Assembly: GCA_041649295.1 (NCBI GenBank)
Contig: JBAZNI010000001.1
Location: forward strand, 76,720-140,719
Length of the DNA: 64,000 nt
From: Candidatus Pacearchaeota archaeon
GTDB lineage: Archaea; Nanobdellota; Nanobdellia; Pacearchaeales; GW2011-AR1
Direction: 5' to 3'
In this document: one piece after another, positions 2,700 through 33,666 of the stretch
Numbering within the stretch: the first letter of the stretch is position 1
Layout of the letters: each line of letters opens with the position of its first letter
The notes under the pieces: model-generated
The model's database searches: none
Told to the model about the DNA's origin: nothing
The model's input: only the letters and a program-made list of their open reading frames with translations
Made by a program: the position numbers and the translations under genes

Positions 2700-3080
2700 T
2701 TGATTTTTTGCCTTCGGCATCGTTGCGCTTTCGGAAAGTTATTTAAACATAAAGATTTTATTTTCTATAATATGAAATATTGGTTAAAAGGAGGATTTAT
2801 TCTTTCTGGAATTTTTTGGGCTATAATATTCATCAATTACATAATTATGTCTTTTAATATGGGTTGTTCTACATCTCCCTTTGAAATGTTAAATATTGGT
2901 GGACCCAATTGTTCATGGGGATTTCAGAATTCATCTGTTTTAATCAATTCCTTTGAAATTTTTATTCAAATCCTTCTTTTTCTGTTTTTATTAGCTATTT
3001 TAAGCATCCCTTTTTTCTTAATCGGAGCTTTAATAGGCCGGATAATTAGTAAAATTAAATCTTCTAAAAGGCGATCATAA
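2700..3080 (+). CDS. Membrane protein, hypothetical
   Basis: Hydrophobic TM segments; no family recognised. Confidence 0.3.
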   Translation: MIFCLRHRCAFGKLFKHKDFIFYNMKYWLKGGFILSGIFWAIIFINYIIMSFNMGCSTSPFEMLNIGGPNCSWGFQNSSVLINSFEIFIQILLFLFLLAILSIPFFLIGALIGRIISKIKSSKRRS

Positions 3081-3082
3081 AT

Positions 3083-3724
3083 TTAATTTTCTTCCCTTTT
3101 TCTTCTCACATGAATTATGAAAATAGCAACAATTGCTCCGAGTGTGTTAAAAACTAAATCAAGTGCTGTATTAAAGTAACCTCCAACACCTGTTTCAGGA
3201 ACAGCAACAACTGCGCTAAACTCTACAATTTCATTCAAAGCTCCTAACCCCATTGCAGTTAAGATTATAATAGCATAAACAACTTTGTAATTTGTTTTAT
3301 TGTTTAAATACGGTTTTAACAAGTGCCATGTAATTAAAGCTGTTACCCCAAAACCAATAAAATGAACTAGCTGATCAAATTTGAATATTTTAATTGCCTC
3401 AATGCAATTTCCTGCCCCAGTAATCACTACTTTTTGCGTGTCGACTAAATTAACTATATTTAGGGTATAAAGAACACTGCCATTTGGAAGTTTTAACCCC
3501 CCTCCGCATAAGTGCATAATTGCCCATAAAGTCAGTCCCCCCAAAATCCAGTAGTCAAATTTTGTTTTATTCCAAGTAGCGAGTATTAAAACAAAAAATA
3601 AAACAATTACCCCGATATAAATAATAAACTCATAATTTGCAATATTCCAGTAGTATATTGTAAAACCAATTATAAATAGTAAATTTACAATAAACAAAAA
3701 CCACTCACCTTTTTTTAAGTGCAT
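3083..3724 (-). CDS. Polytopic membrane protein, unknown function
   Basis: About 6 TM helices; GLGALNEIVEF motif; no confident family. Confidence 0.4.
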   Translation of the reverse strand: MHLKKGEWFLFIVNLLFIIGFTIYYWNIANYEFIIYIGVIVLFFVLILATWNKTKFDYWILGGLTLWAIMHLCGGGLKLPNGSVLYTLNIVNLVDTQKVVITGAGNCIEAIKIFKFDQLVHFIGFGVTALITWHLLKPYLNNKTNYKVVYAIIILTAMGLGALNEIVEFSAVVAVPETGVGGYFNTALDLVFNTLGAIVAIFIIHVRRKREEN

Positions 3725-14608: not shown

Positions 14609-14798
14609 GGATCCGTAGCTCAGTCTGGTCAGAGCACTGGACTCTTAAATGTAAGGACCTAGAGAACATACTTGTTCTCTGGTTCAGAGAATCTTTGATT
14701 CTCTTGAAACCCAGGTTCCTTAGCACTCAACCTCCTAAGATAATAACTTAAGGGCAAGAGAAATCCAGGTGTCGAGGGTTCAAATCCCTTCGGGTCCA
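14609..14798 (+). tRNA. tRNA-Lys(CUU) with a 115-nt intron at canonical position 37/38
   Basis: Hand-folded: acceptor GGATCCG/CGGGTCC, D-arm GCTC..GAGC, anticodon stem CTGGA/TCCAG with loop CTCTTAA, T-arm GAGGG-TTCAAAT-CCCTT, discriminator A. Intron 14648-14762 contains two perfect hairpins. Confidence 0.7.
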
Positions 14799-20465: not shown

Positions 20466-20750
20466 ATCAACGAGCGAGTTAGAGATAGGCCACATTCTGT
20501 TGTTTGTCCTTTAAGGAATCAAACATGCTAACATCTGACTATGCGGTTTTAAACCTTGCACCAACCAGGATGCTCGTTCCAGCCCAAAAGGGTATCGTTT
20601 CTATCTCATTGCCCTGCCTCACGACAGTATTCTTTCGAATATGGTTATAAGTGGTGTGCGGACCTTCCTCAGACACAGAGAATTCATTTTTAATTCTTGT
20701 TGATTTAACAACACTGCACCGAAGTTAGCTGTCTAACTCGCTCTGAAAAA
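20466..20750 (-). ncRNA. Candidate structured RNA (SRP 7S RNA or minimal RNase P RNA) closed by a 12-17 bp terminal helix
   Basis: GC-enriched about 285-nt island between tRNA-Phe and the next gene. Ends CGAGCGAGTTAGAgAtAG ... cTgTCTAACTCGCTC are inverted repeats. Minus-sense has GAGGAAGGUCCGCAC (CR-I-like), ACAGAAUGUGGCCUA (CR-V-like) and GGAACGAGCA (SRP helix-8-like). Identity and strand are uncertain. Confidence 0.3.
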
Positions 20751-21620: not shown

Positions 21621-21839
21621 ATTATATAAACCAATGTTTCTTTTTAAGATTCCTAGCCATTAAATGGCTGGGCCACACGCCAATTAATTAGCACATCATT
21701 TAGATTTATTTTAAGTCATGAAATTCAACTACGACAATTAGTAGTTATGATATGAATGCGAAACTTGAAGTAGTGGTGCTCTGTCGTTAAGACACTAGGA
21801 GGCTCCTTTTTAGGAGAGATTAATTGGCTACAAAGTTGG

Positions 21840-29195: not shown

Positions 29196-29490
29196 CTTAT
29201 AGATTTAAATTGTAGCTTTTAGTAACTGCAGACTGAACACGTCGCCGAAGCTTCGTGCTTACATCTCAGTTCTATCAACGTCCTCTTCTTGGACGGCCTA
29301 AATTGTCTCGTTTTGCGGATGGCTTCGTGCTTAGATGCTTTCAGCACTTATCCATACAATGCGTAGCTGCTCGGCATGCTCATAACAACCGATACACCAG
29401 AGGCATCCAAGTACCGTTCCTCTCGTACTAGATACTCGTTCCACTCAGACAATAACACACCTAGTAGATATCATACAAACTGTCTCACGT

Positions 29491-30254
29491 ATATTTTTCC
29501 ACTTTTTCAAGTTGGTATGGACTATACCTTCATCCTTACTTTTTGTAAGGAGATCGACGTCTTAGCCATCTTTTGCAAGATGACTCTTGAGCTAAACTCT
29601 CAGTCTCTACGGGGATAAAGATTTATTTACCACTTCATAAGTTAATTTTCTTTTCTTAGAATAGTTAAGTTCTTTGAACTTATCTACAAGCTTACAAATA
29701 TCTAGAAAATCTTCATCAGATTTTTTATTATCTAATTTATTTAAGATTTCTAAACCAAGTTTTACTTGTCTTTTCTTTAACTTTATATATGGTTGCAGAA
29801 GTATCAAAATTTTATGAACTTCTTTTGGTTCAACAATAGTATAATCGCTAATTCCTGTTTTACGATGACGAATACATCCATTCTCAAATATATTTTTAAG
29901 CCATTCTAAAATCTCTTTATATTCTGTTTTTTGATAAAATGCTACTGAGCTTCTTATCTGAAACTTTTGTTTATAATCTGGCCTTGAAACTATCTGAAAG
30001 AAAATGCTTCCATCTCCATCTAAGAATCCTGCGATATATGCAAGTGTTGTTTCATCTGCAAATCTCATCTTCCCTCGGTATTACCATGCTTTATCTGTTT
30101 TTAATCTTTTATTTTAATCCTAAAAGGACAAATAAGTTTAGGTTTCACCGATATGAGTCGATTTTATTTTTCATAACATTACTGCTATGCAACGCCGTGT
30201 TTTGTGTTAACTCCATATTTCTATATTCACATGGGTCTGCTGGTTTTGTGTTGA
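29491..30254 (-). other. 23S intron 1 (about 764 nt) in the AACGUC-GUGAGACAG region, E. coli about 2593; likely archaeal BHB-type
   Basis: Exon sequence GGGTTAAGAACGTC (30255 and up) resumes as GTGAGACAGTTTG at 29489 and down. Intron does not end in G and the 5-prime exon junction is ambiguous, arguing against group I. Confidence 0.7.
29607..30068 (-). CDS. LAGLIDADG homing endonuclease (intron 1 encoded)
   Basis: LAYIAGFLDGDGSIFFQ motif, 153 aa, fully inside the intron. Confidence 0.85.
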   Translation of the reverse strand: MRFADETTLAYIAGFLDGDGSIFFQIVSRPDYKQKFQIRSSVAFYQKTEYKEILEWLKNIFENGCIRHRKTGISDYTIVEPKEVHKILILLQPYIKLKKRQVKLGLEILNKLDNKKSDEDFLDICKLVDKFKELNYSKKRKLTYEVVNKSLSP

Positions 30255-30907
30255 CGTTCTTAACCCAGCTAACGATCCCTTTTAATATGTGAACTCCAGC
30301 ACCCTTGGTAGCTTATGCACTACCAGGTTAGGAAGAGCCGACAGCGATGTACCAAACCGCCCCGTCAATACGGACTATCGGGGGCGACAAGCCTGTTATC
30401 CTTGGGGTACCTTTTCTGTCACATTCGGAATCTATTAAGAATTCTCGAAGGTTCGCTAGAACCAGCTTTCGCTTCTGCATTTCTTGCTTTTCGAAATACA
30501 GTTAGATGAGCTTTTGCTCTTACACTCGACTCCAGATTTCCACCCTGGATGAGCTCATCTTTGTGCCCTGTAGATAGATTTTCTACAGGGTGCCGCCCCA
30601 GCCAAACTGCCCACAAGCTGCTGTTCTCTCAAGAGAGTAAGTGGTTCCTTAATTGGTAAGTAGTATTACACTGTTGCTCCACATCTACCGAAGTAAATGT
30701 CTCGACGCTCCTACCTATTCTATGTATCAATCAAAAAATCACAACAACATGCTGCAGTAAAGGTCCACAAGGTCTTAGCTTCCCACTAGGCATCACCGGC
30801 CTTTTCACCGGTTAATGATTTCAGAAGGTTCTGGTTAGGGACAGCGACCACCTCGTTAAACCATTCATGCAAGTCGCCATTCAGACGACAAGGTATTACG
30901 CTACCTT

Positions 30908-31742
30908 AAGCAAACTGTTACTTTTATAACCTTGAATTATTCAAGGCGGGTTTGCGCGAGCAAACCTCTATATGTCTCCATATAGATCGGACTATATCAT
31001 CACAAATTGCAATTTAGTTTTGTGTTTGGCGTATAGTCTCTGAGGATTCTAGAATTAAAATTATTTTGTTTTTTTAGTTTCATCTAAAAAACATTTTGAA
31101 AGCAATCTATCTAATGAATCATCAATTGCTATTTGTATGAATTCCTCTGGAGGAACTGCATAAAAATCCATCTTAGATTTACTCGATGTAAAAATAGGTA
31201 TTCCAGATTCAAACACTTTTGCTATTGGAATCCACAACCAAGTTTTATAATCAAATTCTTCATTTGATAAAACATACCAAATACTCAAACTAAATTTTCT
31301 TTGAATTGAAGAATAATTTTTTGTTTCTTCACTATCTATTGGATATGTTTTATATTCAGAACTTAATTTTTTGTATTTTACATCAACAAAAATAAATCCT
31401 AAATTTGGAATTAAAATTAAAAAATCAGGACGTTTTCCACTGAAATATTTTTTAAAAGCAAAAGATAATGTTTGAGTATCTTGTTGCAAATATAGATATG
31501 GTATATTATGTCTGTCTAGCCATTCTCTAAATTTTATTTCAGCTTCATTTCCTTTTTTCTTATTTTCTTCCTCTATCTGATTCATTTTAGATTAAGGTTG
31601 GCTTTACTTATAATTTTTTCTATTCTAGTCTTTCCTGCGGATTGTCCTTATCTTTTAAATTTTTACTATTGATAAACAATTAGTACCAAAAGCTTAACAG
31701 GATTTTCCCGCATACAGCCAAATTTAAACGCCCCCTAAATTG
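30908..31742 (-). other. 23S intron 2 (about 835 nt) between GUAACUAUGACCCU and AAGGUAGCG (domain IV, E. coli about 1923-1931)
   Basis: Exon landmarks are contiguous in E. coli but separated here by about 835 nt containing an ORF. Confidence 0.65.
31061..31585 (-). CDS. PD-(D/E)xK-fold nuclease, putative intron-encoded homing endonuclease (intron 2)
   Basis: RPDFLILIPN...FIFVDVKYKK gives the D...(D/E)xK motif arrangement; 174 aa, fully within the intron. Confidence 0.55.
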   Translation of the reverse strand: MNQIEEENKKKGNEAEIKFREWLDRHNIPYLYLQQDTQTLSFAFKKYFSGKRPDFLILIPNLGFIFVDVKYKKLSSEYKTYPIDSEETKNYSSIQRKFSLSIWYVLSNEEFDYKTWLWIPIAKVFESGIPIFTSSKSKMDFYAVPPEEFIQIAIDDSLDRLLSKCFLDETKKTK

Positions 31743-33666
31743 AGGGTCATAGTTACCCCCGCCGTTTGATGGGCATTAGCCCCCTTGAAAAGAGGTTTCA
31801 GACACCACCACTGGACAGGTCTCACCGATTATACAAGTCCTTTCGGATTAGCAATCGGCTACGTTTTTGATAAACAGTCGGGCAGTCCTTGTTACTTAGA
31901 TCTACATATGCCTTCTAATATCAAAGACAAATATAGACACCCTTTATACCGAAGATACAGGGCCAATGTGCCGAATTCCCTTAACCAGTTTATCCCTTAC
32001 AGGTCTTAGCCTTCTCAGCTAGGGCACCAGTGCTAGATCTAGGTACAGCTATGCACTTTCTATTTATAGAACTTTTCACTGGCTCCGGGAATCAGGGGTT
32101 TTAGTTAAGATATTCATTTGCATCTTAGCATTATGCTCAACAAATTTCTATCTTAAATTCGCTTTCGCGACTCCACTTATCCAGAAGCAATTCCATAACA
32201 TAACAAAAGCACAAAGTTCAGGAATATTAACCTGATTTCCATCGAAGTGCTCAATTAAGACACTCCTTAGGTACTGACTAACCCTTGGCTAACGTATATT
32301 GCCAAGGAAACCGTGCCCTTACGACCTTTTCCATTCTCAGGAAAATTTGATCCTACTCCAGCCAGGATTTTCATTGCTTTTTGTTCCACACACTCTTTCG
32401 AGAATGCTTCTGCACAAAAAGCACGCCAGTTTACCAGAACACTCATCTGAGTGCCTCTATGGTATCGGTAGTATGCTTAGCCCCGTCCATTTTCAGGGCC
32501 AAAAACCTCGATAGGTGAGCTGTTACGCTTTCTTTAAAGGGTGGCTGCTTCTGTGCCTACCTCCCCACTGTCTCAGGTTTAAGACACCTTTTGATACACT
32601 TAGCATACATTAGGGACCTTAACCATAGTCTCCCTTGTTCGGGTCTCGGAACAGGACCTTACGCCCTGCCCCCGTTTCTTATTTTAAGCAGTATACAAAT
32701 TCTGAGTTGGAAAGAGTTCCGTAGCATAATGCTCTGCAAACTCAATCCGTACTTTACCTCGTATACAAACAAAATAAGGCTATACTAAGGCATATTTCAA
32801 CTGGAACCAGCCATCGCCAGATTAGATAGGCTTTTCACCCCTAATCACAAGTCATCCAAGTACATGCACATAACACCGGTTCAGGCCTCCATCCTTATTT
32901 CTAAGAACTTCGCCTTGCTCATGATTAGATCATCTGGCTTCGGGTCAATCCTCTGTGACTAAACGCCCTTTCAGACTCGCTTTCGCTTTGGCTACCAAAT
33001 GTTAACCTCGCCACAAAAAATAACTCCCTGGCCCATTTTTCGAAACGTACGTTACAACACCTTAATGCCGTAACAAACCGTGACTGTTAGATTTCAAGTC
33101 TTTTAACTCTCTGCCAAGAGTACTTTTCAGCTTTCCCTCGCGGTACTAGTACGCTATCGGACTTAAGTTAATATTTAGGGTTCGGAATTAATCTTCCGGT
33201 ATTCAGACCTCCAATTCGGGAAGCCCTACTCTTTTAAGAAACACCATATATTTTTATCTACGGGACTATCACCCTGTATTGTGCAACTTTCCAGAAACTT
33301 CAATAAAAATACTTAGGCATTGATTCTCACCACATCTCTATCTCTCTTTCGAAAGAAGATTCAGTTTGCCCTCTACCCTTTTCACTCGCTGTTACTAAGG
33401 GTATCGCTTTTGCTTTCTTTTCCTGCAGGTACTAAGATGTTTCAATTCCCTGCGTATGCCTGCTTCTCAGCATTCTCCGAAGAGAATGTAGAATCACATT
33501 AGGAGATCCCAAGATCAAAGTTCGCATGCAACTCCCTTGGGCTTTTCGCAGCTTGCCACGTCCTTCATCGCAACTTAAGCCAAGCTATCTGTCTAACAGC
33601 CTGTAAAATCAAATCTAAAGATATCATTAATAGATTTCTCTATCAAGATACCTATGGGAAACCATG

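Follow-up and report, generated by a model that had tools for sequence, protein, structure and literature searches.

A predicted PD-(D/E)xK nuclease in a group I intron of a Pacearchaeota 23S rRNA gene belongs to a mobile gene family associated with rRNA operons

We analyzed a stretch of 64,000 nucleotides from contig JBAZNI010000001.1 of a Candidatus Pacearchaeota assembly (GCA_041649295.1), hereafter called the window, and in particular an insert that splits domain IV of its 23S rRNA gene. The insert is almost certainly a group I intron and not an archaeal bulge-helix-bulge (BHB) intron, and the loop of its P6 helix carries an open reading frame (ORF) for a 174-aa protein that very probably has the PD-(D/E)xK nuclease fold. 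The protein belongs to a family that, as a whole, is a mobile gene linked to rRNA operons. The intronic copies look like a derived clade whose members entered the P6 loops of related introns at positions 1923 and 1931 of the large-subunit (LSU) rRNA and at one 16S site. The intron type and the site are known, while the nuclease family itself appears to be unpublished; we regard it as a candidate for a new family of endonucleases, one that is linked to rRNA operons in an unusual way.

The insert in the 23S rRNA gene and its intron class

Rfam models identify a minus-strand archaeal LSU rRNA gene in the window, with the 16S rRNA gene upstream of it. Domain IV of the 23S rRNA gene is interrupted between U1923 and C1924 (E. 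coli numbering) by 832 nt of foreign sequence on the minus strand. In the RNA sense, the sequence across the insert reads ...GGGGGUAACUAUGACCCU / CAAUUUAGGGGG ... CAGUUUG / CUUAAGGUAGCGUAAUACC, the exon side before the insert being ...GGCGGGGGUAACUAUGACCCU and the one after it CUUAAGGUAGCGUAAUACCUUGUCG. In an intron-less relative (L060; such labels denote the related loci sampled below), GGGGGTAACTATGACCCTCTTAAGGTAGCG is continuous at this point, and its uninterrupted 23S rDNA around the site is GGGGGTAACTATGACCCTCTTAAGGTAGCGTAATGCC (L060/L054 type). As intron-less relatives read through without a break, the insert is real and 832 nt long. The original prediction, made from the sequence of the window alone, had placed a second intron of ~835 nt at about position 1923 of domain IV, at 30908..31742. 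Rfam and the intron-less relatives bear this out, the settled boundaries lying within 3 nt of the proposed ones. A one-base C ambiguity allows two registers, 30910..31741 and 30911..31742; the homologous intron of L055 (GAGGCU/UAGC...) is free of it and sets the boundary at U1923/C1924, that is, at 30911..31742.

In a permissive Rfam scan, two parts of the insert matched the group I intron model RF00028: the P4-P6 part (31712..31594, 21 bits, E 0.0075) and the P7-P3-P8-P9 part (31163..30968, 34.6 bits, E 6e-7). Both scores are below the gathering score of 50 bits because the 525-nt ORF splits the ribozyme model, whereas an ORF-less homologue at the same site (L034) exceeds it with 51.8 bits over the whole model. 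The ends of the insert are those of a group I intron. The last exon base is U in all LSU 1923 and LSU 1931 homologues, and the intron terminates with G before CUUAAGG in six of the six LSU 1923 homologues (...CAGUUUG/CUUAAGG in the window). The terminal G is also found in nearly all LSU 1931 homologues, the exception being L073 with an apparent A. Moreover, at three different insertion sites, the internal guide of each intron is complementary to the exon next to it, and the two covary: the pairs are CCCU/GGGG (window and L057), GAGGCU/GGUCUC (L034), and GAGGCU/GGCCUC (L055). In the related LSU 1931 introns, exon CUUAAGGU is paired with guide GCCUUAAG, and in a related 16S intron (L062) exon UGCGGU is paired with guide GCCGCA.

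The core helices are supported by covariation. P3, which was picked at fixed offsets from sequence anchors and not by complementarity, had all six pairs formed in every one of the 26 introns; its sequence occurs in at least nine variants, and five of the six pairs have changes on both sides. P4 shows a compensatory change from G-C to U-A among the relatives. In an alignment of P3, P4, and P7 (19 rows, 18 distinct introns), 97.5% of cells were paired and seven pairs had changes on both sides; the covariation score was matched by none of 500 shuffles, and sliding the 3' partners by one to three columns reduced pairing to 24-44%. In the window intron, all core helices are intact and fully paired. 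The stem that bears the ORF, P6/P6a, also has compensatory variants, CUGGAA/UUCCAG in L006 and CUAAAAUU/AAUUUUAG in L054. The P6 span is 560-675 nt with the ORF, compared to 25-80 nt in ORF-less homologues. The domain IV introns of L049 and L073 lie between these states, with a P6 span of ~270 nt, and may contain decaying ORF remnants, as in the gain-decay-loss cycle of homing endonucleases.

The original prediction had pointed to the junctions as the place of a BHB structure. A BHB intron, removed by the tRNA splicing endonuclease EndA, would suit an archaeal host, BHB introns being the classical archaeal rRNA introns (PMC6125680). However, no such structure could be drawn here with the geometry of two 3-nt bulges, a 4-bp central helix, and flanking helices. 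The two splice registers yield just three and two of the four central pairs, with poor flanks; the best of 81 registers (±4 nt) pairs 8 of 12 positions, and none has a 4-bp helix with flanks. Given also the hallmarks of a group I intron, we consider a BHB intron hardly credible.

A side observation concerns helix 69, next to the insertion site. In nine Pacearchaeota-like loci (L005, L012, L014, L019, L034, L048, L068, L098, and L106), its loop is GGGCCUAAUUCCUGAGGCUC, one base longer than the near-universal GGGGGUAACUAUGACCCUC, which is the form in the window. The longer loop is present both with and without introns and thus looks like a lineage trait.

The predicted nuclease and its family

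The strings PDFLILIP and VDVKYKK, on which the original prediction of a PD-(D/E)xK nuclease had been based, are present in the 174-aa ORF. In an alignment of 30 sequences, E16, K51-R52-P53-D54, D68, and K70 are invariant, making up the complete E...PD...DxK set, and a conserved C-terminal region of ~70 residues contains T115-W116-x-W118 and D156-S157-x-D159-R160-L161. The AlphaFold2 (AF2) model (pLDDT 75.7, pTM 0.73) has an alpha-beta-beta-beta-alpha-beta core, with a helix at residues 3-25, strands at 31-33, 55-59, and 63-70, a helix at 85-98, and a strand at 102-108. In the model, helix 1 contains E16, D54 sits where strand 2 begins, and strand 3 contains D68-x-K70.

The first Foldseek match in PDB is archaeal Hjc (2wiz_A, E 3.2e-5, probability 1.0, TM-score 0.43-0.59), followed by RecU (1zp7), the SPARDA nuclease domain, DpnI, and HincII, so that the top matches are all PD-(D/E)xK proteins. 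Among viral models, Foldseek matched uncharacterised phage proteins and RecU/Hjc-type resolvases. In Pfam, there was no significant match for the protein, the best being RmuC with E 0.056. The sub-threshold Pfam matches of 30 relatives are all to PD-(D/E)xK families (RmuC in 12/30, NERD in 10/30, PDDEXK_14 in 4/30). The NCBIfam model NF038001 ('HYExAFE') matched at 23.7 bits (E 3.5e-5), against a curated cut-off of 60 bits. Over their N-terminal 100 residues, which are the nuclease core, all 30 aligned members match it with E<=0.01, and all stay under the cut-off; as NF038001 is a family without an assigned function, this adds no mechanism. The Hjc and RecU family models of Pfam and NCBIfam gave no match.

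As the motif, the order of secondary-structure elements, and the uniform identity of the Foldseek matches agree, we have little doubt about the PD-(D/E)xK fold, and the earlier assignment is upheld. The protein is predicted to be a metal-dependent nuclease, structurally closest to Hjc/RecU. These resolvases have the same catalytic order, with Glu in helix 1, Asp in strand 2, and (D/E)xK in strand 3. However, their identity to the window protein is just 10-16%, with TM-scores of 0.4-0.6. The window family, by contrast, has the extra conserved C-terminal region of ~70 residues, and its genomic behaviour is that of a mobile gene, unlike the housekeeping resolvases.

A word-indexed search yielded 266 homologues at E<=1e-3, all of them 'hypothetical' and nearly all from Pacearchaeota, Woesearchaeota, or Nanoarchaeota bins. 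An exhaustive profile search yielded 508 clusters at 50% identity, mostly from DPANN archaea, and a pattern scan picked up 32 of 185,579 species representatives. In eleven comparisons of the window ORF with relatives, the ratio of nonsynonymous to synonymous substitution rates (dN/dS) was 0.06-0.20, indicating strong purifying selection. Together with the 266 homologues, this means that the ORF is not a chance frame, and the protein must be functional both in introns and as a free-standing gene.

These data also bear on whether the intron is a decayed, unspliced one in a fragmented or non-functional 23S rRNA gene, with the ORF as a relic. The two RF00028 scores under the gathering score count against an intact intron and are compatible with decay, as is the odd 3' junction of the neighbouring LAGLIDADG intron (see below). 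The low scores are, however, explained by the ORF splitting the model, and the core helices, the U at -1, and the terminal G are all in place; the ORF is intact, has all catalytic residues, and is under purifying selection; and this 23S rRNA gene is the sole one in the window. Decay is therefore very improbable. Slightly less probable still is that the protein is mainly an intron maturase, helping RNA folding, and not a DNA nuclease. Some intron-encoded LAGLIDADG proteins do have maturase activity (PMC11270868), but in the family considered here the complete metal-binding catalytic set is invariant, and most members reside outside introns.

To describe genomic contexts, we sampled species-representative genomes (32 loci) and metagenomes (80 loci), and located rRNA by blastn with the window exons; the counts below are for 94 loci with unique ORF sequences. 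The ORF lies inside rRNA introns in 21 of them: ~14 at LSU 1931, four at LSU 1923, one at a 16S S956-like site, and two cut by contig ends. In ~47 loci, it stands free at no more than 1 kb from the end of an rRNA gene, in every orientation: just downstream of the 23S 3' end on the same strand (22 loci, two of them recognised by Rfam alone), divergent from the 16S 5' end (16), convergent with the 23S 3' end (five), downstream of 16S (three), and in the 16S-23S spacer (one). In the remaining 26 loci, the fetched DNA contained no rRNA; most of them lie on contigs that extend for less than 1 kb beyond the ORF. This preponderance of free-standing relatives next to rRNA genes goes beyond the original prediction; it both enriches and complicates a reading in terms of homing.

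The closest relative of the window protein (L001, 87% identical) is itself free-standing, 459 nt after a 16S gene, and its homology to the window is limited to the ORF, 37 nt upstream, and 7 nt downstream. A TATA-like box of the window ORF falls inside this upstream stretch of 37 nt, which is still homologous in free-standing copies. Among 91 related loci, TATA-like hexamers peak at -30..-26 from the ATG (44 loci, compared to at most 11 in any other 5-nt bin), and the peak is shared by intronic and free-standing loci. The movable unit thus looks like the promoter plus the ORF.

Copies independent of rRNA show no synteny, their neighbours being unrelated housekeeping genes or a group II intron. 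The latter case is L011 (1676..3401), from a Thermoplasmata-labelled bin, where a free-standing copy lies 600 nt from a group II intron with a reverse transcriptase and maturase ORF (RF02001). Two distant relatives (P0123 and P0164) are in ordinary gene neighbourhoods; three others are on contigs too short to judge. In phage genomes, tblastn found no relative, and PHROGs yielded just a weak match to a family of unknown function. A scan of ten longer relatives (330-410 aa) for a fused domain found no informative partner, and the window contains no second copy of the nuclease gene. In addition, the 16S gene beside the free-standing copy of L007 has an insertion of ~170 nt (~2966..3135), near position 720 of the window 16S.

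The gene has moved between hosts. In L039, L042, L046, and L047, the ORF DNA is 82-85% identical to that of the window, while the host 16S and 23S are just 65-72% identical; that the protein gene is more conserved than the surrounding rRNA implies a horizontal transfer in the recent past. When 90 ORFs were arranged in a neighbour-joining tree, the 22 intronic ones all grouped in a single clade (29 leaves), among whose members seven free-standing copies are nested; the other 61 leaves are all free-standing. Intron residence looks derived, since the intronic copies form one clade within an otherwise free-standing family. Within it, LSU 1923 and LSU 1931 carriers are interleaved, the window ORF (LSU 1923) being sister to that of L036 (LSU 1931). 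Similarly, L055 (LSU 1923) and L050 (LSU 1931) have host 23S 92.7% identical and ORF regions 88.8% identical, but differ in the 5' parts of their introns and in their P3 helices. Similar ORFs at two sites 8 nt apart would fit one cleavage region serving both.

The same core with the nuclease ORF is also found in a 16S gene: in L062 (116..1028), a group I intron ending in G follows GCGUGCGGU, an S956-like site. Conversely, homologous introns lack the ORF in L034, L045, L052, L061, and L106. In six loci (L034, L045, L052, L061, L073, and L106), an ORF-less intron at LSU 1923 or LSU 1931 is accompanied by a free-standing copy just past the 23S 3' end, on either strand. In the intronic clade, three of the four free-standing copies with a visible domain IV (L045, L061, and L051/L052) lie beside a site occupied by an ORF-less intron.

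Homing, its alternatives, and known systems

We favor, with modest confidence, the explanation that the intron-borne nuclease acts as a homing endonuclease. The steps would be those of known group I introns and their endonucleases (PMC3943268, PMC3984707). The ribozyme would excise the whole insert from the pre-rRNA, making an insertion in helix 69/71 harmless, and the ORF would be transcribed from its own promoter. The nuclease would then cut intron-less 23S alleles at or near 1923-1931, and repair from the intron-bearing allele would copy the intron with its ORF into the cut. If the enzyme is a dimer, its target might be centred on the palindrome CTTAAG (C1924-G1929), which lies between the LSU 1923 and LSU 1931 insertion points. 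The only 23S gene in the window is interrupted at the presumed site of cleavage.

Several observations weigh against this explanation. The majority of family members reside outside introns. The 1923-1931 region is uninterrupted beside a free-standing copy in L008, L012, L014, L019, L027, L029, L060, and L098; the site of L060 is identical to the spliced exons of L054, and that of L008 to those of L006 and L056. Hence, either enzymes of the L060 and L008 type do not cut this sequence, or the cell tolerates or blocks cutting. The ORF in the intron of L062, at the unrelated 16S site, is 76% identical, so that specificity would have to have shifted quickly or not be tied to the insertion site. The AF2 model is of moderate confidence (pLDDT 75.7), with TM-scores to Hjc of just 0.4-0.6, and the nearest folds are structure-specific resolvases, not sequence-specific enzymes. 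The class and anatomy of the intron, the fold with its catalytic residues, purifying selection, horizontal spread, the genomic contexts, and ORF-less versions of these introns are shown by the data above; nuclease activity, the target site, and homing are inferred from comparisons of sequences and models.

The same observations suit a nuclease that is not a homing endonuclease, but a resolvase-like, repair, or defence protein, or a selfish gene spreading by other means. Such a gene would lodge where it is harmless and the flanking homology is high, as in P6 loops and at the borders of rRNA genes, and would ride with recombination of rRNA operons between lineages. The ~47 free-standing loci at rRNA gene ends in every orientation, against 21 intronic ones, are readily explained in this way, as are the distant relatives in ordinary neighbourhoods, the eight intact 1923-1931 regions, the Holliday junction resolvases as best fold matches, and a promoter that makes the ORF independent of the intron. 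On the other hand, residence in self-splicing introns at the most conserved rRNA sites is a hallmark of homing endonucleases, and so are the ORF-less twin introns and the transfer across hosts differing by ~30% in rRNA. Further, the location of three of the four free-standing copies of the intronic clade beside a site occupied by an ORF-less intron fits a nuclease targeting that very site. We thus consider a non-homing nuclease rather unlikely, although it is the main competitor of homing.

A more specific and tentative proposal can also be made, to which we give somewhat less than even chances. The family would be a new one of homing endonucleases, Hjc-like PD-(D/E)xK proteins without sequence kinship to I-Ssp6803I. 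It would also be the first candidate from archaeal introns that is not of the LAGLIDADG type, and its living members would show every stage in the assembly of a mobile intron. At stage one, there would be a free-standing nuclease gene beside intron-less rRNA genes; at stage two, the gene would still stand free, with the cut site in the adjacent rRNA gene shielded by an intron that lacks the ORF; and at stage three, the gene would reside in the P6 loop and spread with the intron to LSU 1923, LSU 1931, and the 16S site.

The intron itself has close published counterparts. Archaeal group I introns have been described at LSU 1923 and LSU 1931 (subtype IB4) and at LSU 2593 (IA3) (Nawrocki, Jones & Eddy 2018, PMC6125680), and they are of the same class, at the same sites, and in the same host groups (Pacearchaeota, Woesearchaeota, and Micrarchaeota) as the window intron. 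The 23S gene of the window has two group I introns, since the insert at ~LSU 2593 also matches RF00028 partially; its ORF (29607..30068, minus strand) encodes a 153-aa single-motif LAGLIDADG protein. The original prediction had stressed the combination of two introns and two endonuclease families in one 23S gene. The second family holds, but neither the intron nor the presence of two introns in one 23S is new, as both were published in 2018, including Pacearchaeota contigs with two: MNVZ01000017.1 has LSU 2593 and LSU 1923 introns together, like the window (PMC6125680). A large ORF insertion in P6, where the window ORF also resides, has been published for IA3.1 (PMC6125680).

The difference is in the ORF type. 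All ORFs recognised in that study (in 21 of 39 introns) were LAGLIDADG, as are all intron-encoded ORFs so far identified in archaeal group I introns (PMC6125680), whereas the LSU 1923 intron of the window carries a PD-(D/E)xK ORF. Both in the archaeal survey (PMC6125680) and in one of the Candidate Phyla Radiation (CPR) bacteria (PMC11270868), ORFs were sought with Pfam-type models, and the reported types are LAGLIDADG and, in CPR, also GIY-YIG. The family described here would have been invisible to these surveys, as no Pfam model exists for it. We found no description of an Hjc-like or PD-(D/E)xK ORF in archaeal, DPANN, or CPR rRNA introns in the searched literature, which does not span all journals.

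Six families of homing endonucleases are recognised, with F-CphI as a seventh, and for PD-(D/E)xK the reviews cite one enzyme, I-Ssp6803I (PMC3943268, PMC6083498); the original prediction was thus right that homing endonucleases of this fold are rare. I-Ssp6803I is encoded in the group I intron of a cyanobacterial tRNA-fMet gene. Similar to the window protein, it is small, has a restriction-endonuclease fold, and comes from a stable-RNA gene. It is one of the compact homing endonucleases, a class whose members usually form multimers on their targets (PMC3943268) and to which the window protein would belong too. The suggested I-Ssp6803I type, however, did not hold. The profile of the window family had no match at E<=10 among all PDB chain sequences, a single-sequence search against PDB sequences likewise found no relation to I-Ssp6803I, and this enzyme is outside the top 50 Foldseek matches in PDB. 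The hosts differ as well: I-Ssp6803I is found in a tRNA gene in another domain of life, whereas the window family is associated with 23S and 16S rRNA genes and is mostly free-standing.

Free-standing endonuclease genes beside introns are known from phages. F-CphI and the psbA intron of cyanophage S-PM2 are an example of 'collaborative homing' (PMC6083498), in which a free-standing gene lies beside an ORF-less intron, as in the six loci listed above; trans-homing by T4 mobE and I-TevIII is a comparable arrangement (PMC2790892). F-CphI has an Endo VII motif and mobE is an HNH enzyme, and both are from phages, whereas the window family is PD-(D/E)xK and resides on archaeal chromosomes. Also in contrast to these systems, its gene is found inside the intron too, so that both stages are represented in one family; for this family, cleavage at the insertion site is our inference.

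If the proposed role is correct, a compact 174-aa PD-(D/E)xK enzyme acting on highly conserved 23S rDNA would provide rare-cutting nucleases with a new scaffold, and a class of ORFs in the rRNA introns of DPANN archaea and CPR bacteria would have escaped the surveys that rely on Pfam. According to one proposal, mobile introns originate by invasion, a free-standing endonuclease gene entering an intron that occupies the cleavage site of the encoded enzyme; the free-standing copies, those beside ORF-less introns, and the intronic ones provide a natural series for testing this. In practical terms, rRNA gene calling and assembly in DPANN genomes are disrupted by these inserts and by the unannotated gene next to them, and many survey contigs end there.

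Features of the window

The coordinates of the intron, its ribozyme elements, the ORF, and the interrupted 23S rRNA gene are given in Table 1.

Table 1. Coordinates of the features of the interrupted 23S rRNA gene in the window
Feature	Position	Strand	Basis or details
23S exon 1, 5' part through helix 69, ends ...GACCCU (U1923 = 31743)	31743..33616	-	Rfam RF02540; junction comparison with intron-less relatives
Group I intron at LSU 1923, 832 nt	30911..31742	-	RF00028 partial matches, U at -1, terminal G, covariation in P3/P4/P7
P1: exon CCCU (31746..31743) with internal guide GGGG(G) (31735..31731), loop CAAUUUA	31731..31746	-	Read from sequence
P3: 5' strand UUUGGC, partner GCCAAA (31030..31025)	31717..31722	-	Fixed offsets from anchors
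P4-P5 domain: P4 UGCGGG (31712..31707) with UCCGCA (31641..31636), P5 extension inside	31636..31712	-	RF00028 alignment
P6 and P6a, whose loop contains the ORF cassette	31044..31635	-	
P6 pairs	GG (31635..31634) with CC (31045..31044)	-	
P6a pairs	CUAGAAU (31628..31622) with AUUCUAG (31055..31049)	-	
TATA-like box UUAUAAG, ~22-28 nt before ATG	31607..31613	-	Putative archaeal promoter, near-leaderless mRNA
174-aa ORF, predicted Hjc/RecU-like PD-(D/E)xK nuclease	31061..31585 (stop codon included)	- (same strand as rRNA)	
P7-P3'-P8-P7' core	30990..31038	-	RF00028 alignment
P7, P3', P8	P7 GACUAU (31038..31033) with AUAGUC (30995..30990); P3' GCCAAA (31030..31025); P8 31024..31001	-	
P9, P9.1, P9.2	30985..30968 (GAGA loop); 30965..30950; 30946..30930	-	Hairpins read from sequence
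3' segment closed by the terminal G (omega-G, 30911)	30911..30985	-	Kept in all LSU 1923 homologues
23S exon 2, begins CUUAAGGUAGCG (C1924 = 30910)	30263..30910	-	
Other intron, ~LSU 2593, with LAGLIDADG ORF; boundaries approximate	29489..30262	-	RF00028, 24 bits, E 8e-4

In the window and in L052, the 3' junction of the LAGLIDADG intron at ~LSU 2593 is odd. Intron-less relatives have AGAACGUCGCGAGACAG here, and restoring it in the window and L052 needs a 3' end of the intron at A or C (...AAUAUA/CGUGAGACAG), not at G. In L044, the junction at this site is normal (...UUAAGG/CGCGAGACAG). Either splicing takes two extra bases of the helix 93 loop, or the intron is atypical.

Elsewhere in the window, Rfam identified an RT-16 RNA (106 bits) at 21652..21836 on the plus strand, near the RNase P RNA (20474..20741, minus strand) and a tRNA-Phe gene. 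RT-16 is a class of structured RNAs associated with reverse-transcriptase genes. In addition, a 190-nt Rfam tRNA match at 14609..14798 on the plus strand, which ARAGORN did not call, is probably a tRNA gene with a long intron.

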